DNA from: an uncultured Alphaproteobacteria bacterium
GTDB taxonomy: Bacteria; Pseudomonadota; Alphaproteobacteria; HIMB59; GCA-002718135
Direction: 5' to 3'
DNA length: 64,000 nucleotides
Assembly (NCBI GenBank): GCA_902522865.1
Contig: CABYXC010000003.1
Location: 33,672 to 97,671, forward strand
Part shown: positions 2,530 to 36,070 of the stretch, piece by piece
Layout of the letters: each line of letters begins with the position of its first letter
Position numbering within the stretch: position 1 is the first letter of the stretch
Notes under the pieces: model-generated
Databases searched by the model: none
The model's input: only the letters and a program-made list of their open reading frames with translations
What the model was told of the DNA's origin: nothing
Program-made: the position numbers and the translations under genes

Positions 2530-3434
2530 TTAATTTTTCTAATTTTTAATTTTTTTAAAAACTTTTTTACGTTGTTTAAATTTGGTATTGAATATATGCC
2601 TCCAGCTTTCATGCATTTTAAAGTTGCAGTAGCTGCTGCCAATTGAATACTTTGAGAGTTTGATTTATTTAATGATAGAGCTGTTGCAAAAGCACCATGA
2701 AAAACATCTCCTGCACAATTCGTTTCAACTGTTTTTACTTTTGGAACATTACAATGATATAATGAGTTATTTTCAACCCAATAAACACCGTTTGATCCCA
2801 TAGTAACTGCAACAAATTTATTTGTTTCATTGAATATTTGAAAAAGAGCCTTTTGCATATTGATGTTTTTTTTATAAGTTTTCAAACCTTCTTCAGAAAA
2901 TATAGGGTGCGAAGCTTTGTGGACAATTTCAGAAATTTTATTAGAGTTTTTAAAATTATCTAGATCAGCAACACATTTAATATTTTTTTTATTGGTATTA
3001 ATAGCAATATAAGAGGCCATATCTATCCATCTCATATCTATTGAATAAATATCCTTTTTTTTAAAATTTATTTTGGGTATTTTCTTATAATCAAGTAATT
3101 TTGGATCATTGTATGCTGCTAGTAATCTTTCACCTTTTGTATCCTCAATTACAAAGCTTTGCGAAGACTGACATTTTTTAATAAAAATTGATTTACTAGT
3201 ATTAATAGAAAATTTTTTTAATTCATTTTTTAAAAAGTCTGATGAATCATCATCTCCAATTTTTCCTATGAATTTTGATTCAGAGCCCAAAATTTTTGCA
3301 GTAAATGCAGATACTGCTGCTGAACCACCTAATCTTTTATCAATACCTCTAGATAAAACTTTAATTGGTTTTTTTGGAAATTTATTAATCCTACTTATGT
3401 AATCTGTAAATATTGATCCTGCGCAAATGATCAT
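2526..3434 (-). CDS. PfkB-family carbohydrate kinase (ribokinase/sulfofructose-kinase-like fold)
   Basis: N-terminal 'RLGGSAAVSA', C-terminal 'TNCAGDVFHGAFA' (PfkB signature 2-like). 4-nt overlap with neighbours on both sides. Confidence 0.75.
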   Translation of the reverse strand: MIICAGSIFTDYISRINKFPKKPIKVLSRGIDKRLGGSAAVSAFTAKILGSESKFIGKIGDDDSSDFLKNELKKFSINTSKSIFIKKCQSSQSFVIEDTKGERLLAAYNDPKLLDYKKIPKINFKKKDIYSIDMRWIDMASYIAINTNKKNIKCVADLDNFKNSNKISEIVHKASHPIFSEEGLKTYKKNINMQKALFQIFNETNKFVAVTMGSNGVYWVENNSLYHCNVPKVKTVETNCAGDVFHGAFATALSLNKSNSQSIQLAAATATLKCMKAGGIYSIPNLNNVKKFLKKLKIRKIK

Positions 3435-3444
3435 AAAATATTAA

Positions 3445-4014
3445 TTAAAGGTATTTAACTTTACCAATAAACTTTCTAAACCTATCTCTTATAGTTATAG
3501 GATTGAGTGGAATGGGATCAGTTTTAACATTTCCAGAATTGATCTTTGAAATTATCACATATGAATTATCTTTATCATCAATGGCTTTGTTCAATTCATT
3601 AACTGTTTCCTCGCCAGAACATTCAACCACATTTTTGCAGCCAGCTCCTAATGCAACATCCTTCAAGCAAGTTTTCTCATCAGTAAATGTTCGTTGATCT
3701 CCTGTTGATCCATAAGAACCATTATCAATTATCAATAAAGTATAGTTTGATGGTGCTCTATTACCTATTGTTGCTAGAGTATTCATATTCATTAAAACTG
3801 ATCCATCACCATCTATACTAATAACGTGTTTATTTTGGGATAGTGCCAAGCCTAAGCCAATAGAAGATGATAAGCCCATACTGCCTAACATATAAAAAAA
3901 ATTTGGTTGATCACTAATTTTATATAATTCTTGAGATGGAAGACCTATATTACAAATAACTAAGTTATCTTTAAGAATATTTTGTACCTTATTTAATAAA
4001 TCAAAACGGTTCAT
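3445..4014 (-). CDS. comE: Sulfopyruvate decarboxylase beta-subunit-like protein (TPP-binding C-terminal module)
   Basis: 189 aa with TPP motif 'IDGDGSVLMNMN...IIDNGSYGSTG'. The split two-gene layout and sizes match ComD/ComE rather than fused phosphonopyruvate decarboxylase. Confidence 0.6.
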   Translation of the reverse strand: MNRFDLLNKVQNILKDNLVICNIGLPSQELYKISDQPNFFYMLGSMGLSSSIGLGLALSQNKHVISIDGDGSVLMNMNTLATIGNRAPSNYTLLIIDNGSYGSTGDQRTFTDEKTCLKDVALGAGCKNVVECSGEETVNELNKAIDDKDNSYVIISKINSGNVKTDPIPLNPITIRDRFRKFIGKVKYL

Positions 4015-5610: not shown

Positions 5611-6509
5611 TATGTTTTCCTTAATCTTTGAAAATTATTTTTTCTTTGTTGAAGATAAATGATTAATCCACCTAAAACTATGAAAAAAGCACCTGGGAAA
5701 AGTTGATCAACTGGCCATTCTGCAAAGAATATCCAACCTAAAATAAGTGCAAAAAATATCTCGATATAATCAAAAGGCATAATTTTACTAAGTTCTGCTT
5801 TTCTAGCACCATATATTAAAAGTAAAGTTCCAGATCCTCCTGCAATCCCCATGACACAAACTACTAAGAAATCATTTATACTTTTGAAATTTTCCCACAT
5901 ACCAAAAAATACCACTAACATACATGCAACTATGATTGTCCCTGTTTGACCATACAAGTTGATAAGTGGTGAAGGAACATGATCCTCAAAACTTAAGGAT
6001 GTTACTCTTGCTAATGAATATCCAAAAGCAGCAAGTATAGGAAGTAATAACATATAATTAAAATCTGATGACCAAGGTTGCATAATTAAAACGATCCCTA
6101 CAAAACCAGAAATTACTGCACTCATTTTGTACCAACCAAATTTTTCACCTAATAAAGGAATAGCAAGAAGGGTGACCATCATTGGCCCAGTGTATTCCAT
6201 GGTAGCGACTAAAGCAAAAGGTAAGTAAGCATAAGAAGTATAGAGACATAATTGAGCCAATGCTACAAATACTCCGCGGAATAATCCTAACTTCCATTGC
6301 GTTATTTTTATTTGTCTACCATTTCGATGCCAATCATGTGAAAAATATAAAGCAATAACACAAGGGATCATTCCAAATAAATTTCTAAAAACAGAAAGTT
6401 GAGCTGCTGGATATTCGTTTCGTAAAAACTTTATCGCAATCCCCATACAATCCAATAAAAACAAACCTGAAAGTGATAATAAAACAGCTAAAAATAAATT
6501 ATTTTTCAT
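5610..6509 (-). CDS. DMT superfamily (EamA-like) transporter
   Basis: About 10 hydrophobic segments in 299 aa. 1-nt overlap with the epimerase gene. Confidence 0.7.
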   Translation of the reverse strand: MKNNLFLAVLLSLSGLFLLDCMGIAIKFLRNEYPAAQLSVFRNLFGMIPCVIALYFSHDWHRNGRQIKITQWKLGLFRGVFVALAQLCLYTSYAYLPFALVATMEYTGPMMVTLLAIPLLGEKFGWYKMSAVISGFVGIVLIMQPWSSDFNYMLLLPILAAFGYSLARVTSLSFEDHVPSPLINLYGQTGTIIVACMLVVFFGMWENFKSINDFLVVCVMGIAGGSGTLLLIYGARKAELSKIMPFDYIEIFFALILGWIFFAEWPVDQLFPGAFFIVLGGLIIYLQQRKNNFQRLRKT

Positions 6510-21982: not shown

Positions 21983-22750
21983 TTATTTAGCTGTCCATCC
22001 TCCATCAATTACTAACGAAGAGCCAGTCATCATTGATGCGGCATCTGAAGCAAGATACACTACAGCACTAGCAATATCACTTTCTGTTGCTACTTTTCCT
22101 AAAGGTATGTTTTCAATTACAGATTTTTTAAAACTTTTATCTTTAAAAAATTTTTTGACCATTGGGGTTTCCACAAATGTAGGGCAAACGGAATTAACTC
22201 TGATGTTGTGCTTAGCCAAATCAATAGCCATCCCTTTGGTAAGACCTTCAACACCAAACTTAGTCATATTATAAACACTTCTAAGAGGAGCACCTACTTT
22301 ACCTAACTGAGAAGAAATATTTATTATTGATCCACCAATTTTTTTTCTATTTTTTGATTTAAGCATAACTTTTGTAGCTAATTGAGCAATATCGAATGAT
22401 GCTTTAATATTAAGATCAACCACTTCACTCATATCTTTTCTTTTAATTTTGGTGAAATATTCAGGTCTATTTGTGCCAGCATTATTTACTAATATGTCTA
22501 ATTTATTGATTTCAGAAAATATTTTTTTTATTTCTTTTAAATTAGTTACATCACACACATAGTAACTACATTTCTTTTTGAGTTTTTTAATTTTGCTTTG
22601 AATAATTAAAAGATCTTTCTCTGTACGACTAAGAATTATTACATTTGCGCCTGCTTCTGCTAATGCTATAGCACATGCTTTACCTATGCCTTTGCCTGAC
22701 CCTGTCACAAGAGCAGTCTTATTTTTTACATTAAAATTTTTTAGAAACAT
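21983..22750 (-). CDS. Short-chain dehydrogenase/reductase (SDR)
   Basis: 'TGSGKGIG' cofactor motif, 'NNAG', catalytic 'YNMTK'. Confidence 0.85.
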   Translation of the reverse strand: MFLKNFNVKNKTALVTGSGKGIGKACAIALAEAGANVIILSRTEKDLLIIQSKIKKLKKKCSYYVCDVTNLKEIKKIFSEINKLDILVNNAGTNRPEYFTKIKRKDMSEVVDLNIKASFDIAQLATKVMLKSKNRKKIGGSIINISSQLGKVGAPLRSVYNMTKFGVEGLTKGMAIDLAKHNIRVNSVCPTFVETPMVKKFFKDKSFKKSVIENIPLGKVATESDIASAVVYLASDAASMMTGSSLVIDGGWTAK

Positions 22751-22763
22751 TTGATCTGATTAT

Positions 22764-23423
22764 TTACAATGAAAAAATAGATTGATCTAATAAATTCATT
22801 TTTTTAATACACATTTGAAAACTATCTTCTAAATGGTAATCACCTGGGAACCCAATGCATTTAATTCCAGCGTTTACAGCAGAATTACTACTTTCTTCAG
22901 TATCCTCTATTGCAAGACAATCTTCTGGCTGTAAATTTAATTTATCTAATGTGACTTTGTATATTTCTGGATGTGGTTTTTCATTTTTAACAAATGATTT
23001 ATTACCAATGAATTCAAATTCTTCTTTTGAAATTTGACCCGAAAGACTTTCAAATACTGCATCGACATTATTTAAAGTTGTAGAAGTTGAGAAAGCAAGT
23101 TTAATATTATTATCTTTTGTATACTTAATTATTTCACCAACGCTCTTTCTTAATTTTTGTTTATTCTGAATAATGTATGAGCTAAAGATTTCTGTTTTTC
23201 TATTTCTAATTTGTGAAGCATTTACATTAGTATTATTTTTTTCAGCAAAATCTTCTACCCTTTTTGTCCCGCCAGATTTTTTTAACAAAATTTTATAATC
23301 TTGCTCATCCCAATACCAATCAAGTCCAGCTTCTTTAAAAGCTTCATTAAATGAGTTACGTTGAATGTTAGAAGATTCAATTAGTGTCCCGATAGATCCA
23401 AATATAAGTGCTTTATATTTCAT
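22764..23423 (-). CDS. HAD-superfamily (beta-phosphoglucomutase-like) protein with a degenerate motif I
   Basis: Motifs II-IV are recognisable ('FSTSTT', 'KPHPEIY', 'AIEDTEES'). Motif I reads 'LIFGSIGTL' instead of DxDGT; I confirmed this by retranslating 23380-23423. Confidence 0.6.
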   Translation of the reverse strand: MKYKALIFGSIGTLIESSNIQRNSFNEAFKEAGLDWYWDEQDYKILLKKSGGTKRVEDFAEKNNTNVNASQIRNRKTEIFSSYIIQNKQKLRKSVGEIIKYTKDNNIKLAFSTSTTLNNVDAVFESLSGQISKEEFEFIGNKSFVKNEKPHPEIYKVTLDKLNLQPEDCLAIEDTEESSNSAVNAGIKCIGFPGDYHLEDSFQMCIKKMNLLDQSIFSL

Positions 23424-23441
23424 AAGATTAGAAATTTATTA

Positions 23442-24323
23442 TTAACCTTTTACTGCTCCAGCAGTTAAACCACTTATTAATTGTCTTTGGAAAAACATGA
23501 TTATCATAAAAAGTGGTGCAGTTGCTGAAACAACACTTGAGACTGCCCACATATAATTTCCACTATGTTCAATTGTGCCCAAATAAGCATTAATTTTAGG
23601 AACCATAGTATAATTCTGCTGATTTAAAAGAAGTGAAGTAACTGTAAAATCATTATAGGCTAACATCATGCTGAATAAACCTGCGGTAACAACTCCAGGC
23701 CACATAACAGGCATTATAACAAAGCGAAACGCTTGAAAATATGAACAGCCATCAATTAGTGCACTTTCATCTAACTCTTTAGGAACTGTTTTAAAGAAGG
23801 AATAAAGTAACCATAATGTAAAGGGTTGATTGATTGCAACTAAAACAATTATGGTAGTTGGAAGTATGCCCCAAACATTCAATTGGAAGAAAGGAAACAG
23901 ATAACCAGAAACTAATGTAATGTGTGGCATCGCTCTAAAAATCAAGGCAGCTATTAAAATCCAAAAAGTATATTTATATGTCGATCGAGACAAGGCATAA
24001 GCACCCAATGTTCCTAAAAATAAAGAGATCGTAACAACTGAAACAGTGATAATAATTGTATTCATTGTTGCTTTCCAAAATTCACCTTCAGTCCAAGACT
24101 CTACATATGCCTTAACTGTAGAAGTATCTCCTGTTTCTATCAAAGTATTAACTCCTGTGACTGCAAACATCCAATCAGCTCTTGAGAAAAAGTCGGCTTT
24201 TACTTTAAATGATCCCCAAAAAGTCCATATAAAAGGAAACACAGAAATAATTAACCAAGCAAGAATAAAAAAACTATTTATTAAAATTAGTTGTTTTGAG
24301 TATCTATTAATTTTTGATTCCAT
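23442..24323 (-). CDS. Carbohydrate ABC transporter permease (MalG/UgpE-like)
   Basis: 6 TM segments with EAA loop 'ESALIDGCSYFQAFRFVIMP'. Confidence 0.8.
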   Translation of the reverse strand: MESKINRYSKQLILINSFFILAWLIISVFPFIWTFWGSFKVKADFFSRADWMFAVTGVNTLIETGDTSTVKAYVESWTEGEFWKATMNTIIITVSVVTISLFLGTLGAYALSRSTYKYTFWILIAALIFRAMPHITLVSGYLFPFFQLNVWGILPTTIIVLVAINQPFTLWLLYSFFKTVPKELDESALIDGCSYFQAFRFVIMPVMWPGVVTAGLFSMMLAYNDFTVTSLLLNQQNYTMVPKINAYLGTIEHSGNYMWAVSSVVSATAPLFMIIMFFQRQLISGLTAGAVKG

Positions 24324-24324
24324 A

Positions 24325-25353
24325 TTATCTTTCTGTCCTAAATTCTCTCCATGTTCTTATAAGTACTGGTGTTAATAGAATTGCTACACCAATAATAGTT
24401 AACATAGATGTTGCTCCTGCAGATCCAAATAACATTTTGTTTTCACTTCTTAAGTCATTATAAATCATCCAAGAAAGTGATTGAGCAACTCCTTCAGCAG
24501 CAAAACCGATTATTGGCTCAAGAACCCTAAAATTATCCATTAGACAAATTAATATAATAAATGTTGCTACCGGATAAAGATGTGGAATAACAATGTGTCT
24601 GACTCGTTCATATCTTGAGGCGCCATCTATGATCGCTGCCTCAATTGGATCTTGAGGAACAGTTTGTAATGCAGCATAAAAGACAACAAAAGCAAATGGT
24701 GTATTGTGCCAAATCCCATAAATAATCAGAGTAATCCAAGTCAATTGACTTGAGGACTTTAGTGATAGGTTTGGATCATCAAATAAGAATTGAATAAATG
24801 AACCTAATATTCCCTTAGCATCTATCATCCAAAATAAAACAAGAGATCCAATCAATGGTGTTACAATCATAGGCAGTATAACACCAAAAATGGTTGGGCC
24901 TTTTAAACTTTTTGTAATGGTGTTTACACTTAAAGCAACGATGAAACCTAAAACTACAACTGGTGGCGTAACTGCAAAACAAAATGTAAGTGTAAATAAA
25001 AGTGCTTTGTAAAAAGGTAAATTTAGTAAGGTATCCGTAAACTCAGCTATGGATGAGGAATTAGTCCAAGCCTCTTTAATTTCATCAAAAGCCAAATGGT
25101 TTCTATCGCCGTATGTTCCTAAACCATTGAATCTTCCAAGAGGTTGTTCTTCTTGTAATTTTGTTGTTGCTTCAATATCAACTTTTGTTTCTGTTTTGCA
25201 TCCAAATGGATCACATTTTTCTACTTCCATTAAAATTTGTTCAGGCTCAATGTGAAGAGATTGAAAAAAACTAGAAATAATTGGAAGGCCAATAAATAAT
25301 AGCATTGCCAATCCACTTGGAAAGAAGAACCAAAAAAATGTTCTGTGGGGCAT
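24325..25353 (-). CDS. Carbohydrate ABC transporter permease (MalF/UgpA-like)
   Basis: EAA loop 'EAAIIDGASRYERVRHIVIPHL' and a long first periplasmic loop. Confidence 0.8.
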   Translation of the reverse strand: MPHRTFFWFFFPSGLAMLLFIGLPIISSFFQSLHIEPEQILMEVEKCDPFGCKTETKVDIEATTKLQEEQPLGRFNGLGTYGDRNHLAFDEIKEAWTNSSSIAEFTDTLLNLPFYKALLFTLTFCFAVTPPVVVLGFIVALSVNTITKSLKGPTIFGVILPMIVTPLIGSLVLFWMIDAKGILGSFIQFLFDDPNLSLKSSSQLTWITLIIYGIWHNTPFAFVVFYAALQTVPQDPIEAAIIDGASRYERVRHIVIPHLYPVATFIILICLMDNFRVLEPIIGFAAEGVAQSLSWMIYNDLRSENKMLFGSAGATSMLTIIGVAILLTPVLIRTWREFRTER

Positions 25354-25365
25354 CTATTTCTTACT

Positions 25366-25397
25366 AAAAAAAAAGTGGAACATAATAATGTTCCACT
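25366..25397 (-). terminator. Intra-operon rho-independent terminator/attenuator after the binding-protein gene
   Basis: Perfect 10-bp stem AGTGGAACAT(25374-25383)/ATGTTCCACT(25388-25397) with a 4-nt loop. On the minus strand it is followed by a U9 run (plus-strand A9, 25366-25374). Confidence 0.7.
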
Positions 25398-25419
25398 TTA
25401 TCATAAATATTTATACGGT

Positions 25420-26655
25420 TTATAGAAATCCTTGCTCAGTAGCTTTTGCTACATAAGCAGCTTCTACATCCGCTAATGCTTTTTCAGCAGACTCATTTCC
25501 TTGAAGGAATTCAACAAGTTCTGTGCTCAAAGCACCATGTAATAGACTCATGTATGGTAAGCTTGGGTAAGGTGTTGCACCTCTATTAGCAGCGTCAACA
25601 ACTGGCCCTGCTGTATCTCCAGGCGAATAACCATCAATCAACCAAATTGTTGCATTTGGATTAGCATTTGCCATTTCTGTTGAAGTTGCTGCACCTAAAA
25701 GAGCTCTAAAAGATGCTTCTGCATTTTCATCAGAAGTGTTTGTTGCAATTCCAAATCCATCCCACCATAGAGTTGTTGCTGGCTTACTTCCACCACCTAC
25801 AGATGGAGAAGGAGCTAATCTAGTATCAGCTTTAATTGCTTGATCACCTTCGTCATCTAACAATGAAGCTGCACCTGAGTTCCAGATATGCATTAATGCT
25901 ACATTACCAGACTCCCATTCTTCTTTAACTGCATTTGTATCTTGAGTTAAGAAATCAGGGTTACTTACTTCGGTTAATCTTTTAAGCATATTAAGAGCAG
26001 CTACACCTTTAGCGTTATTTACACTAACTTCAGCTGTTCCAGCTTTAAAGAAATCACCTCCATGACCTAGGTACATGTTTACAAACTCTTGACCTAAGTT
26101 CCATCCAGATTTGAAAGCACCAGCATATGGGTTAGCCATTTTACCAGAAGCTTTAATTTTTTCTGCAGCCGCAATTACCTCTTCATATGTTGAAGGAACT
26201 GCGATACCTAAATCATTAAGAATACTTTCTCTGTACCAAAGATGTTGAGCATTAGCCATAAATGCTACTGCATAAATTTTACCATCAATCACGATTTTTT
26301 GATTGTCTTGTAATGCACTTCCGTATTTAGCAACTAAATCATCAAGTGGACGAATTAAGTTATCATTCATTAAAGTTGTAATTGAACCATTAGTAACAAG
26401 TTTAGCAGAGAATTCAGCTGGGTTAGCTGAAAGTGCTGCAACTTGTAATTTATTATGATCAACAGAATGTGTTACAGAAAAATCTGCATCAGGTCCTGCA
26501 CAACTTTTTACTTCATCCATGAAAATTCTGTATGTTGTAAATTCGTTTGCTAGAATCTTTATTGATCCATCTGTTACTCCACAAGGTGAGTGCCCACCGG
26601 CATATGCACTTGTGCTAACAAATGTGAACAATAGAGCTATTAATAGTTTTTTCAT
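25420..26655 (-). CDS. Carbohydrate-type ABC transporter substrate-binding protein (family 1), secreted
   Basis: Signal peptide 'MKKLLIALLFTFVSTSAYA'; 411 aa; higher GC and expression-type codon usage. Confidence 0.8.
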   Translation of the reverse strand: MKKLLIALLFTFVSTSAYAGGHSPCGVTDGSIKILANEFTTYRIFMDEVKSCAGPDADFSVTHSVDHNKLQVAALSANPAEFSAKLVTNGSITTLMNDNLIRPLDDLVAKYGSALQDNQKIVIDGKIYAVAFMANAQHLWYRESILNDLGIAVPSTYEEVIAAAEKIKASGKMANPYAGAFKSGWNLGQEFVNMYLGHGGDFFKAGTAEVSVNNAKGVAALNMLKRLTEVSNPDFLTQDTNAVKEEWESGNVALMHIWNSGAASLLDDEGDQAIKADTRLAPSPSVGGGSKPATTLWWDGFGIATNTSDENAEASFRALLGAATSTEMANANPNATIWLIDGYSPGDTAGPVVDAANRGATPYPSLPYMSLLHGALSTELVEFLQGNESAEKALADVEAAYVAKATEQGFL

Positions 26656-26677
26656 ATATTTCCCCTTATTAATAAAG

Positions 26678-26690
26678 TGTGAAATTCACA
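26678..26690. promoter_or_regulatory. Palindrome TGTGAA-A-TTCACA upstream of the binding-protein gene
   Basis: Perfect 6-1-6 palindrome, 23 nt upstream of the start codon at 26655. Confidence 0.4.
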
Positions 26691-26746
26691 TTTAAGTATA
26701 AATCCTTTATATTGGTATTAGAAAATAATGCAATAATATGAATTGA

Positions 26747-26764
26747 TATTCAAGATTTTGAATA
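26747..26764. promoter_or_regulatory. Candidate operator TATTCA-AGATTT-TGAATA
   Basis: Perfect 6-N6-6 palindrome, 20 nt upstream of the LacI-family gene start. An extra TGAAT half-site lies at 26739-26743. Confidence 0.5.
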
Positions 26765-26783
26765 TTGAAATGGGGGATAATTC

Positions 26784-27782
26784 ATGAGTTTTAAAAAGAC
26801 TGCGACATCACAGGACGTAGCAAAACTAGCAGGAGTATCCCAATCAGCTGTTTCTAGATGTTTTACAAAAGGTGCTAGCATTTCTAGTAGAACAAAATTG
26901 AGAGTCTTGGAAGCAGCTAGAAAATTAAAATATAAAGCACCTAATATATCTTCTAATTCAATATCTAATGACGATAGCGGATTAGTTGCTGTCATTTTAC
27001 CTTACGTTACAAGCAGATATTATCCAGAAGTTTTAATAGAGTTACATGAAGCACTTAGGAATGGGGGGTTTAGAATTTTATTAATTACAACTGATGATGG
27101 AGAAGAATTAGATGAAAAATTAATACAGCCATACTTAAAAGAAAAACTCATTGCAATAATATCCGCAACAAAACCCACTGATAAATTTGTCGAAGATTGC
27201 AATCAAAAAAGAATACAATTTATTGCTTATAATAGAAGTTGGAATATACCAACGATAAGTTCCGTTGCATGTGATCATCGTAACGGAGGAGAATTAGTTG
27301 CAGAATATTTTACAAAGAAAAATCATAAAAATATTGGCCTCATTGAAGGACCAAAAGGATCTTATGTTAGCGATGAGCGATGCAAAGGTTTTAAAAATTA
27401 TCTTAAAAATAATAAAAAAATTAAATTAAATATTGAAAAAGGTTTTTTTACTTATGAAGGTGGATATCAAGCAACTGAAAAAATTTTTAATAAAAACATA
27501 AGTGCAATATTTTGCGCTGACGACACAATGGCGTTTGGATGTTTAGATTATATTAAAAAAAATACTTCATTAAAAACACTTTCTCAATTAGAAATTATTG
27601 GTTATGACGATATATCAATGTCAGCTTGGGAATCATATAACCTTACAACTGTAAGACAACCTATTAGACAAATGTCAAAAATAGCAACTCAGTTAATAAA
27701 TGAATATATTAAAGATCCAGATTTTGAACCTATAAATCATATTGTACAGGGAAGACTTATAAAAAGAAAAACTACAAAATAA
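26784..27782 (+). CDS. LacI-family transcriptional regulator
   Basis: N-terminal HTH 'TSQDVAKLAGVSQSAVSRCF' plus a periplasmic-binding-protein-like sugar domain, 332 aa. Confidence 0.85.
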   Translation: MSFKKTATSQDVAKLAGVSQSAVSRCFTKGASISSRTKLRVLEAARKLKYKAPNISSNSISNDDSGLVAVILPYVTSRYYPEVLIELHEALRNGGFRILLITTDDGEELDEKLIQPYLKEKLIAIISATKPTDKFVEDCNQKRIQFIAYNRSWNIPTISSVACDHRNGGELVAEYFTKKNHKNIGLIEGPKGSYVSDERCKGFKNYLKNNKKIKLNIEKGFFTYEGGYQATEKIFNKNISAIFCADDTMAFGCLDYIKKNTSLKTLSQLEIIGYDDISMSAWESYNLTTVRQPIRQMSKIATQLINEYIKDPDFEPINHIVQGRLIKRKTTK

Positions 27783-27783
27783 T

Positions 27784-28203
27784 TTATTTAAATTTTAATC
27801 CCATTTGTTCGAAAACACCATGGTTATCTACCATAACATAATTATCTAAAAATTTTCCATCTTTAATGGTCCAAAAATCTGAAAATTGCATTTTTATAGA
27901 TTTGCCTGTTGGCTCTACTCCAAGATATGTTCCACTATGCGTGCCTGTTAAAAATCCCGTTGCACTAATCCACTCACCTTCTGCAACCACAATATCATTT
28001 TTTACATGATAATCTGGAAATGCTTCATAAAAAGGTTTTAGAACTTTATATTTAAAATTTTCTATACCATGGATATCACCAAAACCTGGAGGGCCGTGCC
28101 AGACCATATTATCATGCCAGTACTTGTGTTGTGCTTCTAGATCTTGAGCATTAAGTGCATCATACATATCAGCTAATAATTTTTTACTTTCATCTAAAGT
28201 CAT
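27784..28203 (-). CDS. NTF2-like/SnoaL-type protein ('predicted ester cyclase' type), single domain
   Basis: 139 aa. 'MYDALNAQDLE...W..NMVWHGPPGFG...FPDYH...GTH.G.YLG..PTGK' is the typical SnoaL-like pattern. Confidence 0.6.
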   Translation of the reverse strand: MTLDESKKLLADMYDALNAQDLEAQHKYWHDNMVWHGPPGFGDIHGIENFKYKVLKPFYEAFPDYHVKNDIVVAEGEWISATGFLTGTHSGTYLGVEPTGKSIKMQFSDFWTIKDGKFLDNYVMVDNHGVFEQMGLKFK

Positions 28204-29339
28204 TTTTTATCTCCTAAAATTTGCATTAGAATTGCAAGCTCATTAAAACCAGTCCACTCTTTAATAATTTTATTATTTTTAATTTCCCATTGAGTGATTC
28301 CCCACAAATACACTTCTCTATTAGATGGTTGGCCATATGAGCCATTCCCTTTATGCGTTCCTACTGCGCCCCAACGAACCGATACTAAGTAACCATCTTT
28401 TGTATTTCCCATCCAGTATAAATCTTCAATACTGAGTGCAAGATCAGGAAACGAAGCTAAAAGTGATATTATAAATTTTCTTAATTGCAAAACTCCTTTA
28501 AATTTACGACCAGTTGAACCTTCAAATTCTACCTTACTAGAGTATGCTTTATTTATTGCAGAAAAGTTTCGTCTATTCCAAATTGTATCATAAACTGCAT
28601 GAACAAACTCTCTTACATTTGTAATTTTATCTGGAATATCAAAACTAATTGGTTTTAATTTGGTAATATTTCTTGTTGGTTTAGAGTTTTTAAAATGAGG
28701 AGCATAGGGCCCTGCAATTCCCTCATGAACAAGTTGCTTGGCAACTTGATTTAAATCTAATCCGAGTTGTTTAATTAAACCTGCTGTATCGTAAACAACA
28801 TTTTCATAATAAATTTCATTATTTTTTGCTACACAATTTGCAATACAAAATAATCTTACTTTTTTACCAGTTGGTGTAGAAAATTTGCTAAATCCTGTAT
28901 TTGTTCCAGTAATAATTGTTCTATGAGAAGTATGAAAACTTGCATTTTGATCTCCTGCCCAAATAACTTCATCTGCAAATAATCGAATATCTGGAAAGGC
29001 GTTGTTTGTGTGTATTGTATCAGCAACTATTTTTTCAGATCCAGATTGTAAACCAAACTCATCCCAAACTCTGCAATCTTTACTGTAGGTGTCATAGATA
29101 TAACCAATATTTTTTTCTTCCCATATTTGATACGTAATCCTTACAATATAATCAATTATATTTTTATACTGATCCTCAAACCCCTTCATTGATTGATGTT
29201 TAAGTTTTTTTGGTTTTGGATTTAATGATTTAGCTGTTCCTCCACCCCCGTATGCTTTTAATGAAATATCATAACTCTTAGGCATATGATGATCTTGAAG
29301 AGCTTCTGGTCTTTTATCTGTAATTTTATTAAATTTCAT
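28200..29339 (-). CDS. Tandem NTF2-like/SnoaL-type protein (two domains), paralog of 31584..32576
   Basis: Shares 'MKGF..Q(Y/F)K...DYI..ITYQIWE' and 'TG.K(V/L)....IA.C' with the paralog. The paralog begins at the equivalent of internal Met51, so an alternative start at 29189 would give about 329 aa. Confidence 0.55.
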   Translation of the reverse strand: MKFNKITDKRPEALQDHHMPKSYDISLKAYGGGGTAKSLNPKPKKLKHQSMKGFEDQYKNIIDYIVRITYQIWEEKNIGYIYDTYSKDCRVWDEFGLQSGSEKIVADTIHTNNAFPDIRLFADEVIWAGDQNASFHTSHRTIITGTNTGFSKFSTPTGKKVRLFCIANCVAKNNEIYYENVVYDTAGLIKQLGLDLNQVAKQLVHEGIAGPYAPHFKNSKPTRNITKLKPISFDIPDKITNVREFVHAVYDTIWNRRNFSAINKAYSSKVEFEGSTGRKFKGVLQLRKFIISLLASFPDLALSIEDLYWMGNTKDGYLVSVRWGAVGTHKGNGSYGQPSNREVYLWGITQWEIKNNKIIKEWTGFNELAILMQILGDKK

Positions 29340-29373
29340 AATTTGTATTTATATTGAGATACATTTAAAAATA

Positions 29374-29391
29374 TTTCAAAGCAATGAAATT
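29374..29391. promoter_or_regulatory. Candidate operator variant ATTTCA-AAGCAA-TGAAAT
   Basis: Perfect 6-N6-6 palindrome, 35 nt upstream of the minus-strand start at 29339. Confidence 0.45.
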
Positions 29392-29393
29392 TT

Positions 29394-29411
29394 ATTCAAA
29401 AAAATGAATAT
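29394..29411. promoter_or_regulatory. Candidate operator TATTCA-AAAAAA-TGAATA
   Basis: Perfect 6-N6-6 palindrome, 36 nt upstream of the plus-strand start at 29447. Its centre is 20 bp from the neighbouring site. Confidence 0.5.
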
Positions 29412-29446
29412 TGTCTTTTTTAGTTTATTAATATAATCAAAATGAA

Positions 29447-30451
29447 ATGACTGATCTCCAAGCAGAAAAAAAATTAGTATTAGATTATTTCAATGAAATA
29501 GATAGTTGCAACATTGATTCATTATCTGAAGTGATATCCAAATACACATCAGAAGATTTTAGTATGAAATGCACACATCCGTTTAACGAATTAGGCAGTA
29601 TAGATCTTGTTGCTAATGATCTTTGGAAACCAATTAAAAATTCATTTTCACCTATACAACGTCGATTAGATATATTTTATGCTGGGATAAATTCACTAGA
29701 TAAAAATAAAGGGAAATGGATCTCCAGTATGGGTCATTTCATGGGTGTTTTCAATAAACCGTTTGTAGGTCTTAAACCAAATTATAAATCTATTTTATTA
29801 AGATTTGCTGAATTTTATAAAGTGGAGAATAATAAAATTACTGAAGGAGCGATTTTTTTAGATGTAATGAATTTAATGCAGCAACTAGGTCTTTCTATAA
29901 TTCCTGAATCTACAGGTCTTGTTTGTGTAACGCCAGGACCAATGAATCATAAAGGTCTAAAATTTGATATTTCTAATAAAAGTGAAAGTCAAAAAACATT
30001 AGATTTAATTCATAGAATGCGTGATCGACTTGTTAAAGGATCTAAAATGCAATCTTATAAAGAAGAATTAGAATTAGATTGGCATGATGACATGATTTGG
30101 TGGGGACCGGGAGGAATAGGAGCTTCATATACTATTGATGGTTATCAAAAAGGTCACACAAAACCATTTCAAGATGGCTTAGAGTTTGTTCGTTTCAATG
30201 GACACATACTTAGTAGCTCTGAAGATGATCTAGGTGGTTGGTTTGGTTGGCCAAATTTAATTATGAAACCTAAAGGAGAATATTTAGGATTAACAAATGC
30301 AAGTGATATTGAATCAGAAATGAGAGTTGTAGATTTATATCGAAGAGATGGAGATAGACTGGCCGAAAACTGGATCTTTATTGATCATTTACATTTTTTA
30401 AAAAAACTAGGAGTGGATCTTTTAGAAAGAGCAAAATTTTTAAATCAGTAA
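29447..30451 (+). CDS. Tandem NTF2-like/SnoaL-type protein, paralog of 33651..34748
   Basis: The C-terminal half ('DWHDDMIWWGPGGIG...ENWIFIDHLHFLKKLGVD') parallels the 139-aa protein and the C-half of 33651..34748. Confidence 0.5.
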   Translation: MTDLQAEKKLVLDYFNEIDSCNIDSLSEVISKYTSEDFSMKCTHPFNELGSIDLVANDLWKPIKNSFSPIQRRLDIFYAGINSLDKNKGKWISSMGHFMGVFNKPFVGLKPNYKSILLRFAEFYKVENNKITEGAIFLDVMNLMQQLGLSIIPESTGLVCVTPGPMNHKGLKFDISNKSESQKTLDLIHRMRDRLVKGSKMQSYKEELELDWHDDMIWWGPGGIGASYTIDGYQKGHTKPFQDGLEFVRFNGHILSSSEDDLGGWFGWPNLIMKPKGEYLGLTNASDIESEMRVVDLYRRDGDRLAENWIFIDHLHFLKKLGVDLLERAKFLNQ

Positions 30452-31579
30452 TTAGATAACTTTTGAGGCAAGTTTAGTGCCCTCAACTAATGCTTGGAGC
30501 TTTTCATAACAAATTTTTTCATCAATTTTTCCAAAACCAGCAAATGTACTAAAACCACAATCTGTCCCTGCCATTAATTGATCTTTTGGAATGACTGTAG
30601 AAAACTGAATTAATCTATCTGCAACAACTTCTGGATGTTCAACAAAATTAGAGGTTGAGTCGATTACACCAGGTACTAGGACTTTATCTTTTGGTAACTT
30701 TATATCTTGAAAAACTTTCCATTCATGTGCGTGCCTAGGATTAGAAGATTCAATGAGAAAGTATTTTACCTTTGATTTCAAAATTATAGGTAATATTTTC
30801 TCTAGAGCAATATCATGTGTGTGGGGTCCTTCATAATTGCCCCAACATATATGCATTCTAGTTTGCTCAACATCTACATTAGATAATGCTGAGTTTAGGC
30901 ATTCAATTTGCAGCTCTGCACGTTTAATAAACTCATCTTCAGATAAATTTTTAAAATTCATATGTCTTGCTAAAGCAAGGTCTGGGCAATCTAATTGAAC
31001 TTGGATATCTGATTTTGTTATTAGCTCATATTCTTTAGCCATAATATTAGATAATTTATCCAAATATTCATCTTCGGTACTATAAAATTTATTTGGCATA
31101 AAAACATTTATGACACCAGGTGATGCTGAGTTCATAAATGCATGTCGGTGATTAAGTTTATCAAGTGAATTTTTAAAATTATTTATATCGTGTAGAAGAG
31201 ACGTTTCATCTTTTACTTTTAATTCGTTTGTACAACATGGTCTGGTATAAGTTGGCGTACCACCACTTTTAGCAATCTTTTCTTTGTATTCTGGAAAATC
31301 ATCAAGATCAGCAGGTGCTCTTCTTTCGCTTTCACCTGAGAATCCATCAATTCTATCTTTAATGTAAGTAGCATAACTAATTTTACTCATCTCGCCATCA
31401 CTGACAAAATCAATTCCAACATCAAGTTGTTTCTTCACCACACTTTCGACGTTGTTTTTTAATACTTCATCAAAACTACTTTGACTGAAATTTTCACCTT
31501 TATCTTTTGCAAATAAAAATTCTGAAAGTTCTTTTGATCTAGGAAGGCTTCCAACATGTGTTGTCAAAATATTAGACAT
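30452..31579 (-). CDS. MetE-like protein (cobalamin-independent methionine synthase II family, Zn alkyl-transferase fold)
   Basis: 'TTHVGSLPRS' N-terminus; likely Zn ligands 'HICWGNYEGPH' and 'GTDCGFSTF'. Its stop directly abuts the convergent gene (30451/30452). Confidence 0.7.
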   Translation of the reverse strand: MSNILTTHVGSLPRSKELSEFLFAKDKGENFSQSSFDEVLKNNVESVVKKQLDVGIDFVSDGEMSKISYATYIKDRIDGFSGESERRAPADLDDFPEYKEKIAKSGGTPTYTRPCCTNELKVKDETSLLHDINNFKNSLDKLNHRHAFMNSASPGVINVFMPNKFYSTEDEYLDKLSNIMAKEYELITKSDIQVQLDCPDLALARHMNFKNLSEDEFIKRAELQIECLNSALSNVDVEQTRMHICWGNYEGPHTHDIALEKILPIILKSKVKYFLIESSNPRHAHEWKVFQDIKLPKDKVLVPGVIDSTSNFVEHPEVVADRLIQFSTVIPKDQLMAGTDCGFSTFAGFGKIDEKICYEKLQALVEGTKLASKVI

Positions 31580-31583
31580 TAAA

Positions 31584-32576
31584 TTAACCTGTTTTTAATA
31601 AAATCTGTTTCCAGATCATGGTTTCATCATAGAGAACCCATTCATTTTTAATACCTCTTGCTCCAAATTCTACATGATTAATACCCATTATATAAATTTT
31701 CGAATTAGAGGCTTTCCCAAAAAGACCATCTCCTTCATGTTTACCTACTATAGACCATCGTACTGAGGCTTTTTTAGGTTCATATTTTTCTTCAGTAAAA
31801 GCAATGTGCTCGACTGAGAACAATGCGTTAGGAAAAGCATTTCTTAATTGTTTCCAAAATTTTATTACCTCATCTCTACCATAGTGAGTTTTTCCCCCTG
31901 GTTGAAATTGCTGTATGGCTCTGTCATAACTATCATTTATTGTTTTCTGTAAATTGATGTTCATAATAGAGGTTAAGATATTTGCATATAATTCTCCAAT
32001 GTTACCAGATGCTAATGTAGGAGATTTATAAATTGATTTAACAGGTGTATTTTCATCAAAGGGTTTACTAGCTTTTTCAGGACCACCCTCGTCTTTAATA
32101 AGATTGCTTGCAAATTTCTTGGGGTCAATTCCAATTTGTCTCACAATTGCTCCTTGATCTCTCACAAGCCACTCATCATAAACTTGATTATTCATACATG
32201 CACAATCAGCAATAGTGCGGTAATACAGTTTTTTTCCTGTCGCTTTCCCATAAATCCCATCAACAGAATGAGTAGAGGTTGATAAAATGCGGTGTGATGA
32301 AAAATATCCCTCTTCATCACTTCCTGTCCAAATTACATCTTCACCTAAAAGTGTTCTGTCGGGAAATAGTTTTTTACTAGCATAAGTACTTTCTATTACC
32401 GGGTCTGCACCATAAATTACTCCAGATGGAGATCTTGTAGGTGTTGGAAGATTTACGTTTGGGGTATCAGCATAATAATCTCTTATTGCTTCAACATCGT
32501 TGTTTTCCCAAATTTGATATGTGATCTTTAAAATATAATCAGGAAAATCTTTGAATTGTGCATCAAATCCTTTCAT
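31584..32576 (-). CDS. Tandem NTF2-like/SnoaL-type protein, paralog of 28200..29339
   Basis: 330 aa with 'DYILKITYQIWENN' and a second domain ending 'NEWVLYDETMIWKQI'. Confidence 0.55.
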   Translation of the reverse strand: MKGFDAQFKDFPDYILKITYQIWENNDVEAIRDYYADTPNVNLPTPTRSPSGVIYGADPVIESTYASKKLFPDRTLLGEDVIWTGSDEEGYFSSHRILSTSTHSVDGIYGKATGKKLYYRTIADCACMNNQVYDEWLVRDQGAIVRQIGIDPKKFASNLIKDEGGPEKASKPFDENTPVKSIYKSPTLASGNIGELYANILTSIMNINLQKTINDSYDRAIQQFQPGGKTHYGRDEVIKFWKQLRNAFPNALFSVEHIAFTEEKYEPKKASVRWSIVGKHEGDGLFGKASNSKIYIMGINHVEFGARGIKNEWVLYDETMIWKQILLKTG

Positions 32577-32587
32577 ATAATTAATAT

Positions 32588-33559
32588 TTAATTAGTTTGT
32601 CGTATTATAAATAAATTACCATCATGATTACTTATCTGTCTTATTGAACGAAGTGAATTTTTTGGAACAGAAAAAGTATCTTTTTCTTTAATTACAACTT
32701 TGTCTCCATCACAATCTATTTCCCATTCACCAGATAAACAATGATACACTTCTGATTTCTCCAGTTTGTATTCATGTATATGAGCACTCTTGCCGTTGAG
32801 AAGTGAAAGGCTAAAACCTGTTGCATGCGGTATATTAGGGGTAAAAGATTTATCATGAATTTGAAACTGATCAATGTAGTTGATAATTTTATTAGATTGA
32901 TAGTGATCATCATCGACAAAATATTTATCTTTATCATTAAATCGAATAACAAACTTTTCTATGTCTTCTGAAGAGTAATGATCGAAACTCTCTAATTCAT
33001 TATCTTCTAGTGGCTGAATAATTTTAGTTTCATCTGTTATTTTCTGTTTCTGTGTGTCGATTAAAGAATTATCATTCATTAATACCATGCCAGATTCTTT
33101 TGCATCTTTTAAAAGTTTAGGTGTCCAAGTAATAACACCTGGATCATTTTCACCTAACACAACAAACATTAAAGCTTCTTCATCACTTACATTTTGAAAA
33201 CCTCTGAACATGTTTGTGGGAAAAGAAGCGATGTCACCTTTTTTTAGTATTACTTCTCCTTCTGTGCCATCAACACCCCAATAAAAACGCCAGGCACCTG
33301 AGTGAATTATAAAAACTTCTGCTGTTGTGTGACTATGTAATCCAGAGCCATTCATCGGCGCAGCACTGACAGCACCAATATTAAAGCCATGTTCTTCAGC
33401 TATTTTAACATTTTGTTTAGCATCTTCACTTACACCAGGTCCTATAACTGAATAATTTTTCCTATCTTGATGACCTTTTAGTTTTCCCTCAACAAATGGT
33501 ATATTACTAGGAATAAGTTCATCGAATTTGGCTAATCTAGATGTAATATTAATTGACAT
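32588..33559 (-). CDS. Bicupin protein (two cupin barrels)
   Basis: The N-domain 'GSGLHSHTTAEVFIIHSG' fits G-x5-HxH-x3-E. The C-domain has 'HIHEYKLEKSEVYHCLSGEW'. Confidence 0.55.
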   Translation of the reverse strand: MSINITSRLAKFDELIPSNIPFVEGKLKGHQDRKNYSVIGPGVSEDAKQNVKIAEEHGFNIGAVSAAPMNGSGLHSHTTAEVFIIHSGAWRFYWGVDGTEGEVILKKGDIASFPTNMFRGFQNVSDEEALMFVVLGENDPGVITWTPKLLKDAKESGMVLMNDNSLIDTQKQKITDETKIIQPLEDNELESFDHYSSEDIEKFVIRFNDKDKYFVDDDHYQSNKIINYIDQFQIHDKSFTPNIPHATGFSLSLLNGKSAHIHEYKLEKSEVYHCLSGEWEIDCDGDKVVIKEKDTFSVPKNSLRSIRQISNHDGNLFIIRQTN

Positions 33560-33574
33560 ATTGTAATGATCTTT

Positions 33575-33593
33575 TATTCATTTTTTTTGAATA
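33575..33593. promoter_or_regulatory. Candidate operator variant TATTCA-TTTTTTT-TGAATA (N7 spacer)
   Basis: Perfect arms, 16 nt upstream of the bicupin start at 33559. Confidence 0.4.
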
Positions 33594-33594
33594 T

Positions 33595-33612
33595 TATTCA
33601 AAATAATGAATA
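33595..33612. promoter_or_regulatory. Candidate operator TATTCA-AAATAA-TGAATA
   Basis: Perfect 6-N6-6 palindrome, 39 nt upstream of the start at 33651. Its centre is about 19.5 bp from the neighbouring site. Confidence 0.5.
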
Positions 33613-33650
33613 AATCAATTATTATTTAACAATAGTGTTATTAAATTATT

Positions 33651-34748
33651 ATGGCAAATAAAATACAAAACTTTGATACAGGTGAGAAAGATAACTCAAA
33701 CATAATTCATTTAGATCTTGATCCAAAGATAAATATTGAAAACAAAATATATTTTAAAAATTTATTAAAAAAAATTACCGAGTGCTCTTTAGATAATTTA
33801 GAAGAAAATCTTGAAAATTTATATCATGTAGATGCTGAGTTTAATGGATTTCATCCAATTAATGAAATTAAAGGAATTGAAGAAATAAAAAATAAATATT
33901 TAATACCTCTAAAGAAGGCATTCCCCGATCTCGAAAGAAGAAATAATCTAGTTATTGGAGGAGCATTTAGAGATAAAGTTTTTGTTTCATTTATTAGTCA
34001 TTTAACTGGAACTTTTAAAAATGAGTGGTTGGGCGTAAAGCCGACTAACAAAACAATTTATCTTAGAACATGTGAAGCGCATCAGATTACAAATAATAAA
34101 ATAATAAAATCCTATACATTAATTGATACTGTAGATTTTATCCGTCAGGCTGGATATTGGCCTATAAATAAATCTCTTGGGGTAGAAGGGATGTGGCCTA
34201 GTCCAATCACAGGTGATGGAGAAAATAATCAAAATTTAGATAAGGAACTGTCTCTTCGATCTTTGAATCAAGATTTAACCATGCAAAGAAGTTTAAATAT
34301 TAAACCCGAGACTGAGCCAGGTCTATCAAAAGATCAAATAAGGGAGAAATTAATTAATCATCCTCAACAAGATTATTGGCATCCAAAAATGATGTGGTAT
34401 GGGCCAAGTGGTATAGGTACAGCTAGAGGTTTAGATGGTTTTATTGATCATCATCAACTCCCATTTAGACTTACATTCAAGGACAGAGATTATTGGAAAA
34501 TCGGTCATTATATTGAAATTGGAGATGGAAATTATTCTATGACTGGTGGTTGGCATAGTATTCAGTGTGTTCATGGATCAAGTGATTGGCTAGGATATAA
34601 ACCTACTCAAAAAAAAATAACAATGAGAGTCATGGATTTTTATTTACATCATGAAGGGTTAATTAGAGAAAATTGGGTTCCAATCGATATAGCACACATA
34701 TTAGATCAAATAGGCATTGATATCTTTAAATTAATTCATAAAAAATAA
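33651..34748 (+). CDS. Tandem NTF2-like/SnoaL-type protein, paralog of 29447..30451
   Basis: 365 aa. The C-half '[15 protein letters not shown]...[18 protein letters not shown]' parallels the paralog. Confidence 0.5.
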
Positions 34749-34750
34749 TT

Positions 34751-36070
34751 ATGGCAATTGAATATTTAAAAAAAGGTTTAGATGAAAAACAAAGAATTGA
34801 AGATAATGATAAAGTAAAAAAAATTGTTGAGGAAACGTTAAGTAAAATTGAATCAGAAGGTGATAAATATGTTAGAGAGTTATCTCAAAAATTTGATAAC
34901 TATTCTCCAGATAGTTTTAGATTAAGTGAAGATCAAATAAATCAATTAATGAGTGAAGTCTCTGATCATGACAAAGAAGATATTAAATTTGCTCAAAAAC
35001 AAGTGCGATCATTTGCGGAAGCACAACTTAAAACTTTAAGTGAATTAGAAGTAGAAACGCATCCAGGCGTTATTCTTGGTCATAAGAATATACCAGTGCA
35101 AGCAGTTGGATGTTATGTACCTGCTGGAAAATTCCCAATGGTAGCTTCTGCTCATATGTCAGTTGTTACTGCCTCTGTTGCTGGGGTTCCAAGAATTGTT
35201 GCTACTACGCCACCTTTTAAAGGTAAGCCAAATCCAGCTGTCGTTACAGCAATGAAAATGGGCGGTGCTCACGAAATTTATGTTTTGGGAGGAATGCAAG
35301 GAGTTGGTGCTATGGCTATAGGTACAGAAACTATTAAACCTGTAGATATGCTTGTTGGACCTGGCAATGCATTTGTTGCTGAAGCAAAAAGACAATTGTA
35401 TGGCAAAGTTGGTATCGATTTATTTGCTGGTCCAACTGAAACAATGGTTATTGCAGATGAAACTGTTGATGGTGAAATATGTGCAACAGACTTATTAGGA
35501 CAAGCCGAACATGGATATAATTCTCCTGCTGTGATGATAACAAACTCAAGAAAACTTGCAGAAGAAACATTTAAAGAAATTGATAGAATTTTAGAAATTT
35601 TACCTACTAAAGAAACAGCAAGTACAAGCTGGAGAGATTATGGAGAAATAATTTTATGTGATACCTATGAGGAGATGTTATCTAAAGCAAATGAAATAGC
35701 TTCAGAGCATGTTCAAGTTATGACAAAAAAAGATGATTGGTTTTTAGAAAAAATGACATCTTATGGTGCTTTATTTTTGGGTGCTAGAACTAATGTTGCT
35801 AATGGTGATAAAGTTATAGGCACTAACCATACTCTTCCTACTAAAAAAGCTGGAAGATATACTGGTGGTTTGTGGGTTGGTAAGTTCATTAAAACCCACA
35901 CTTATCAAAAGATTACAACCGATGAAGCAGCTACACTTATTGGAGAATATGGATCTAGACTTTCACACCTTGAAGGATTTATTGGTCACGCTGAACAATG
36001 TAACGTTAGAGTGAGAAGATATGGGAAAAAAAATGTTGGATATGGAAAACCAGCAGGAGAAAAAATTTAG
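34751..36070 (+). CDS. Histidinol-dehydrogenase-family NAD-dependent dehydrogenase; candidate sulfopropanediol 3-dehydrogenase (HpsN-like) rather than housekeeping HisD
   Basis: HisD-family motifs '[29 protein letters not shown]' and 'LLGQAEHG'. It has '[15 protein letters not shown]' where HisD has, from memory, a YVPGG..YPSS-type motif. It sits in a non-his context, 2 nt after an NTF2-like gene. Confidence 0.6.

Follow-up and report, generated by a model that had tools for sequence, protein, structure and literature searches.

A 64-kb stretch of DNA (64,000 nt of contig CABYXC010000003.1, GenBank assembly GCA_902522865.1, from an uncultured alphaproteobacterium), hereafter the window, contains a variable genomic island in which a LacI-family regulator gene lies among genes for a sugar-type ABC transporter, SnoaL-domain proteins and a bicupin. 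Three divergent intergenic regions of this island (regions 1, 2, and 3, from left to right) each carry an array of four short half-sites built around the palindrome TATTCA-N6-TGAATA. On the sequence evidence, the adjacent LacI-family protein very probably binds all three arrays, which would define a local, autoregulated regulon of 15 genes. The preliminary description of this DNA had proposed a shared dimeric factor, with the adjacent LacI-family protein as the candidate, and had placed the sugar ABC operon and the SnoaL/NTF2 cluster in one predicted regulon. Both proposals gain support, the former from the conserved, island-restricted motif and from the half-site used by relatives of the protein, the latter from the confinement of the motif to the three promoter regions of the island. 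The operator architecture is new in that the half-sites number four and alternate in orientation, the main palindrome is everted, and a central CG is missing.

TATTCA-N6-TGAATA occurs exactly three times in the window, once per region (Table 1). The three exact copies reported previously are thus real and do all lie in divergent intergenic regions of the island; two of them had been placed correctly (26747-26764 and 33595-33612), and the third, given as 29394-29411, had been placed 1 nt too high. Dinucleotide shuffles of the whole window yielded 0.04 chance matches, in agreement with the earlier estimate of well under one in 64 kb, and shuffles of its 3291 nt of intergenic DNA (75% AT) yielded 0.002-0.003, with at least three matches reached in none of 20 000 shuffles of that intergenic DNA. 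Versions with up to two mismatches were not enriched in the window (20 found versus 16 expected), so that only the exact pattern, or the pattern with G/T (K) and A/C (M) allowed at one arm position, is informative. A weight matrix derived from orthologous sites scored the three sites at 20.5-22.4 bits and the next best position in the window at 10.2. The window has approximately ten divergent intergenic regions, and the motif is found only in the three of the island; the other seven hold zero to two isolated pentamers and no array.

The preliminary view of one or two independent palindromes gave way to a four-half-site array in every region. Each reads ATKCA-N6-TGMAT-N4(3)-ATKCA-N6-TGMAT, i.e. 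four alternating pentamers (h1 to h4) over approximately 38 bp. The array can be described as two 18-bp palindromes with their centres 19.5-20 bp apart, the right-hand one perfect (h3-h4, the main site) and the left-hand one weaker (h1-h2, the auxiliary site), and the inner halves of both (h2-h3) form a third palindrome with the canonical LacI geometry. The distances between neighbouring half-sites, measured from centre to centre, are 11, 9, and 11 bp, or 12, 8, and 11 bp in region 3, the three steps spanning 31 bp with about one helical turn each. Region 3 always has the form h1-N7-h2-N3-h3, in which h2 is shifted by one base and the frame of h1, h3, and h4 is unchanged. Among the paired variants described before, the N7 site at 33575-33593 was located correctly, while ATTTCA-N6-TGAAAT lies at 29373-29390 and not at 29374-29391; the pairing noted for regions 2 and 3 holds, and the pair in region 1 (AATGCA-N6-TGAATT) had been overlooked.

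The sites fall within the size range of the even palindromic operators of the LacI family (16-22 bp), being 18 bp long at the three promoters, with one auxiliary site of 19 bp (N7). They are located upstream of the regulator gene itself and of the adjacent operons, at distances of 15-71 nt from six start codons. In region 1 the gaps measure 19 nt (from the main site to the LacI-family gene) and 71 nt (ABC binding protein), in region 2 33 and 36 nt (379- and 334-aa SnoaL genes), and in region 3 15 and 38 nt (bicupin and 365-aa SnoaL gene). The earlier values were 20 nt for the LacI-family gene, 16 nt for the bicupin, and about 35-39 nt elsewhere. Ending 19 nt before the start of the regulator gene, the main site of region 1 is positioned for autoregulation.

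The window belongs to SAR11 (Pelagibacteraceae). A scan of species-representative genomes returned 77 loci, nearly all from SAR11 single-cell genomes, with regulator orthologues of 68-99% identity; these loci (L001-L077) comprise about 20 kb each and 1.42 Mb in total. All 143 exact matches in them are confined to the same three divergent intergenic regions, as are the 183 matches obtained when G/T and A/C were allowed at one arm position. The motif search in related genomes and the comparative footprinting that had been proposed earlier thus point the same way, with the motif present in orthologous clusters, restricted to the promoters of the island, and with fixed arms amid varying spacers and flanks. 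All 100 distinct orthologous sequences have h3 and h4 half-sites that fit ATKCA/TGMAT, with an invariant spacing between the two, whereas h2 matches in 78 and h1 in 53 of the 100. The main-site spacers occur in 13 forms in region 1, three in region 2, and seven in region 3, and no spacer of any orthologue contains a CG. In region 1, between regulator and transporter, the flanks cannot be aligned between locus types and the site block is nonetheless kept: the main-site arms and h2 (TGAAT) are retained in 41 of 41 distinct sequences, and h1 varies between ATGCA, TTGCA, and ATTCA. The main-site arms of region 2 are kept in all 25 distinct sequences, allowing for TGCAT in L033, and its auxiliary site is a perfect ATTCA/TGAAT pair only in the L034/L035 type. 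In region 3, the main site and the N7 spacing of the auxiliary site are both kept in 34 of 34. Three loci (L042, L055, and L056) are filed under archaeal, Neomarinimicrobiota, and gammaproteobacterial metagenome-assembled genomes, carry a SAR11-type locus with a regulator of 70-74% identity, and are probably mis-binned SAR11 contigs.

A homologue search of 1.8 billion cluster representatives placed the SAR11 regulators in an isolated group. The next full-length relatives are 30-41% identical, and no intermediates between 41% and 69% identity were found among the 50%-identity cluster representatives. These relatives have the recognition helix of the SAR11 protein (AGVSQSAVSRCF, within AGVSQSAVSR[CA]F) and a canonical hinge, Y-[RQK]-P-N-A-I-A-R-[SG]-L, in whose motif PNAIARGL residues N53, A54, A56, and L59 are invariant. 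Their gene cluster comprises an SDR gene divergent from a HisD-like gene, then the regulator, together with an alpha/beta hydrolase, an HpcH-type aldolase, several SnoaL proteins, a bicupin, a MetE-like protein, and a transporter, and is conserved and widespread in many non-SAR11 bacteria, Gammaproteobacteria among them (L079-L164).

A canonical LacI-type operator is found in the promoters of the relatives' clusters. The closest relative has TGAATACGCATTCA, and others have TGCATTCGCAGTCA or TGCATTCGAAGTCA; the contig of the closest relative is AT-rich (36% G+C), yet a CG-centred site is used. The pattern TG[AC][AC]T-n-CG-n-A[GT][GT]CA, derived from five loci and applied to all 86 loci of relatives including those five (L079-L165, 780 kb), gave 92 matches in 54 loci versus 0.6 expected, and 86 of the 92 lie in the 81 loci not used to derive it. 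The consensus is TTGCAT-T-CG-A-ATGCAA. The same pattern has no match in the 77 SAR11 loci or in the window, and the SAR11-type everted pattern has three matches in the relatives' loci, two of which are alternative readings of the self-complementary ATGCAT. Given the identical recognition helix, the relatives' operators indicate that the half-site read is TTGMAT, as in the SAR11 arrays, and this identity of half-sites is the strongest evidence, short of experiment, for the adjacent protein as the binder. The two groups thus have in common the recognition helix, the half-site, the kind of gene cluster, and the placement of sites upstream of the regulator and in divergent promoters. They differ in that the relatives have a conserved hinge, a central CG, and as a rule one inverted repeat of 14-16 bp at each promoter, whereas in the SAR11 group the hinge is hypervariable, the CG is missing, and every promoter has four half-sites with an everted main palindrome.

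The regulator itself has the N-terminal helix-turn-helix of the LacI family (PF00356, E = 8e-11, residues 10-51) and an effector-binding and dimerisation core recognised by Peripla_BP_1, Peripla_BP_3, and Peripla_BP_4, and it aligns full-length with the structures of CcpA, RbsR, LacI, and PurR (alignments spanning residues 7-330). Orthologues with as little as 68% overall identity retain the helix-turn-helix sequence LAGVSQSAVSRCFTKGASISxRTKLRV unchanged. In the DNA complexes of LacI, PurR, and CcpA, the central CpG receives a leucine from the hinge helices, which also hold the two headpieces in a set geometry. The SAR11 protein lacks the conserved hinge helix (P-N-A-x-A-R-x-L): its hinge-aligned segment (residues 52-65) reads APNISSNSISNDD and is Ser/Asn-rich and hypervariable; among 23 orthologues, every column between K51 and G66 varies. 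An AlphaFold model built from the 23 orthologues shows coil at the hinge, at a confidence (mean predicted local distance difference test score, pLDDT, of 62) too poor to judge this segment.

According to the mechanism that we propose and consider probable (roughly 0.8), the LacI-family protein would bind the arrays along a single face of the DNA, presumably in the form of a tetramer or of two dimers that cooperate. With all four half-sites occupied, both outward-facing promoters would be blocked, and the protein would repress 15 genes in all: its own, those of the ABC transporter operon, and the four units of SnoaL, bicupin, MetE-like, and HisD-like genes. A small-molecule inducer, bound by the sugar-binding-type core, would then release it. 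Binding, repression, and stoichiometry are inferred from sequence comparisons, as are an everted mode of binding and an inducer. The relatives examined combine the hinge motif with a central CG and canonically arranged half-sites. The SAR11 clade has neither the motif nor the CG and retains the canonical arrangement in the inner pair alone, which suggests flexibly tethered headpieces. It is conceivable, at somewhat less than even odds, that the SAR11 repressor gave up the hinge-helix/CpG-kink mechanism and reads everted arrays with flexibly tethered headpieces, in the manner of CytR but independently of it. AT-pressure and genome streamlining may have driven the shift to non-CG arrays.

Several observations weigh against this picture. 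The h3-h4 half-sites are everted relative to the canonical geometry of the relatives, and an everted palindrome would require flexibly tethered DNA-binding domains, for which the hypervariable hinge is indirect evidence; the coil of the AlphaFold model is of too low confidence to support such a tether. The spacing is uneven across regions 1, 2, and 3, with N6, N6, and N7 between h1 and h2 and N4, N4, and N3 between h2 and h3. A sigma-70 consensus promoter scan over the regions gave 33 matches versus 40 expected, i.e. not above chance, so that an overlap of arrays and promoters is only inferred; candidate -35/-10 pairs overlapping the arrays are at most a weak hint. The absence of further sites applies to the 64-kb window and the ~20-kb loci. 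Finally, a central CG is found in 1173 of 1303 LacI-family motifs (PMC4052901) and in none of the SAR11 sites. Another central pair occurs in 49 of the 1303 regulators (PMC4052901), so the missing CG alone does not exclude membership in the family. The preliminary description had already raised the missing CG as a reservation; the CG is indeed absent, but this is no argument against a LacI-family binder; in the SAR11 clade, the hinge motif has been lost as well.

One could instead take the inner pair alone, h2-N4-h3 (TGAAT-N4-ATTCA), as the functional operator, bound by one dimer in the canonical 6+4+6 arrangement from which the CG has been lost; the outer half-sites, and hence the 18-bp palindrome, would then be secondary or merely stabilising. 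Regions 1 and 2 do match the spacing and orientation of the relatives' TTGCAT-TCGA-ATGCAA, and some lineages, such as the L039 type, have a perfect 16-bp palindrome at this position (e.g. TTGAAT-AATT-ATTCAA). We nevertheless regard this as unlikely, because the spacing is N3 in all 34 distinct orthologues of region 3, h2 is degenerate in region 2 (TGAAA in 22 of 25) where h3 and h4 are perfect throughout, h1 and h4 have no canonical partner and yet h4 is fully conserved, and the hinge that would enforce such a geometry is not conserved.

The arrays might also be bound by a different transcription factor encoded elsewhere in the genome, with the LacI-family protein acting on other targets. Such a factor would fit the lack of the CG typical of the LacI family, and our survey of other regulators and sites was limited to the window and the loci. 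Against it stand the half-site, which is also that of the operators in relatives whose recognition helix is the same, the way the motif travels with the regulator across island variants differing in transporters and gene content, the site just upstream of the regulator's own start codon, and the lack of the canonical CG site from all 1.42 Mb of SAR11 loci; we consider it very improbable. Less credible still, and close to negligible in our estimate, is that the elements are not protein sites at all but RNA or DNA hairpins, overlapping divergent -35-like boxes (TTGAAT, which resembles TTGACA), or AT-rich low-complexity sequence. The arrays can fold (-12 kcal/mol with a z-score of -4.5 for region 3) and the surrounding intergenic DNA is AT-rich, but the folding energies are only such as palindromes give. 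A change in one arm, such as TGCAT opposite ATTCA, has no compensating change in the other, which fits a protein tolerating A or C at the variable position and not a base-paired stem, and an Rfam search of 26000-34500 returned no family match. The regions lie upstream of both flanking genes and so are not terminators, the other seven divergent intergenic regions have no array, and in GC-rich relatives the same half-site belongs to a CG-centred transcription-factor motif. Chance or AT-rich composition as the source of the matches was rejected, with 0.003 expected in intergenic DNA.

Among characterised regulators, the SAR11 protein can be compared with CytR of E. coli, which has an unstructured interdomain linker and relaxed requirements for half-site spacing and orientation, and whose optimal site without CRP consists of the inverted octamers AATGYAAC-GC-GTTGCATT (PMC3454398). 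Both are LacI-family proteins without the canonical hinge, and the CytR half-site TTGCAT/TTGCAA is close to the SAR11 TTGMAT. With respect to a CytR-type linker, the SAR11 group has a hypervariable hinge, everted half-sites, and spacings that differ by region, the structure model being too poor to add to this. CytR, however, is an anti-activator sandwiched between two CRP sites, whereas no TGTGA-N6-TCACA flanks any SAR11 array, the sole TGTGA...TCACA element being an N3 palindrome at 26678-26690, in region 1 only; in addition, the SAR11 arrays keep a fixed spacing within each region. Orthology with CytR was rejected (25% identity by BLASTP; 127 bits with the NCBIfam CytR model against a cut-off of 436). 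By analogy, the resemblance may concern the mode of action, not membership or ancestry.

In the LacI family as a whole, autoregulation is seen for 72% of regulators, and a distance of 21-22 bp between tandem sites is taken as a sign that dimers cooperate (PMC4052901). The obligatory double sites of RafR and ScrR (Ravcheev et al. 2014, PMC4052901) resemble the SAR11 arrays in having two palindromes about two helical turns apart, in autoregulation, and in lying 30-140 bp upstream of start codons. They differ in that the RafR and ScrR sites are 21-22 bp apart, CG-centred, and separate, whereas the SAR11 palindromes have centres 19.5-20 bp apart and inner halves that form the third palindrome of canonical geometry.

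Searches of the literature available to us for the cluster, the motif, and a SAR11 LacI regulon returned nothing relevant, and a paper on a homarine operon concerns other genes. A predicted inducible regulon of 15 genes in a variable genomic island, in which a single repressor would act through three operator arrays on a conserved set of genes, would provide a handle on the tuning of substrate use in an ecologically dominant organism, and would be among the few substrate-inducible catabolic regulons predicted in SAR11. It also offers a natural comparison within the LacI family, in which the recognition helix and half-site are the same and the hinge motif, the CG, and the half-site arrangement differ in one clade, so that the contribution of the hinge helix to operator architecture can be tested directly. 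Should the headpieces indeed be flexibly tethered, this would be a second CytR-like solution, traceable stepwise from canonical relatives that regulate the same pathway. The relatives' TTGCAT-T-CG-A-ATGCAA defines a wider regulon for that SnoaL/bicupin pathway, which is widespread in marine bacteria and appears uncharacterised.

The predicted regulon consists of six units facing outward from the three divergent intergenic regions and together occupying 21983-36070 (Table 1). NCBIfam provided no specific name for the enzymes of the island. Compared with L001-L077, this interval is a mosaic between conserved flanks: in 39 of the 77 loci the three SnoaL genes at 27784-30451, and with them region 2, are missing, transporter proteins fall to 40-60% identity among loci, the HisD-like protein occurs in two forms (approximately 47% versus 83-98% identity), and alpha/beta hydrolase, HAD, and RraA-like genes are inserted in some variants. 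No variant of the island was found to encode a DNA-binding protein other than the LacI-family regulator.

Table 1. Half-site arrays and predicted units of the island (positions in the window).
Feature	Position	Strand	Description
Region 1 auxiliary site (h1-h2)	26727-26744		AATGCA-N6-TGAATT; centre 20 bp from main-site centre
Region 1 main site (h3-h4)	26747-26764		TATTCA-AGATTT-TGAATA
Region 2 auxiliary site	29373-29390		ATTTCA-N6-TGAAAT; degenerate
Region 2 main site	29393-29410		TATTCA-AAAAAA-TGAATA
Region 3 auxiliary site	33575-33593		TATTCA-N7-TGAATA
Region 3 main site	33595-33612		TATTCA-AAATAA-TGAATA
Predicted regulated unit 1	21983-26655	-	Sugar-type ABC binding protein, two permeases, HAD hydrolase, SDR; away from region 1
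LacI-family regulator, predicted repressor	26784-27782	+	Invariant helix-turn-helix, hypervariable hinge segment (residues 52-65)
Predicted regulated unit 2	27784-29339	-	Two SnoaL-domain genes (379 aa, 139 aa); away from region 2
Predicted regulated unit 3	29447-30451	+	SnoaL-domain gene (334 aa); away from region 2
Predicted regulated unit 4	30452-33559	-	Bicupin, SnoaL-domain protein, MetE-like protein; away from region 3
Predicted regulated unit 5	33651-36070	+	Double-SnoaL protein, histidinol-dehydrogenase-like protein; away from region 3

Some further features were seen in the relatives' loci. The singleton relative P0154 (L165) has a degenerate hinge, YSPPISQRAPSKEQ, and its divergent promoter (1240-1275) contains TATGCA...TGAAT-T-ATTCA, an AT-only cluster of the same pentamers with no CG. 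It may be a second case of hinge loss with a non-CG site, anecdotal in that it comes from a single contig without orthologues. In the closest canonical relative (L079), inverted repeats of 200-300 bp at 3280-3610 and 5790-5990 flank the SDR/HisD-like pair, and a short element, GAGACCTTTGCATAAAAA, recurs in several intergenic regions; these look like a mobile or repeated element.

Two additional elements lie close to start codons in the island. The 13-bp odd palindrome at 26678-26690 (TGTGAAATTCACA) is located 22 nt upstream of the start codon of the ABC binding protein and is exact in 41 of the 77 SAR11 loci, only in those with the same type of binding protein. It holds TGAA/TTCA, overlapping and in the canonical orientation, and could be a second operator or a leader element. 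The region 2 array is followed by a conserved TATAAT, with 9 nt between its end and the start codon of the 334-aa SnoaL gene, an ATG (29432-29449). This gene is preceded by no Shine-Dalgarno sequence and has a three-codon mini open reading frame (ATGAAATGA) just before it; its mRNA may be leaderless or nearly so.

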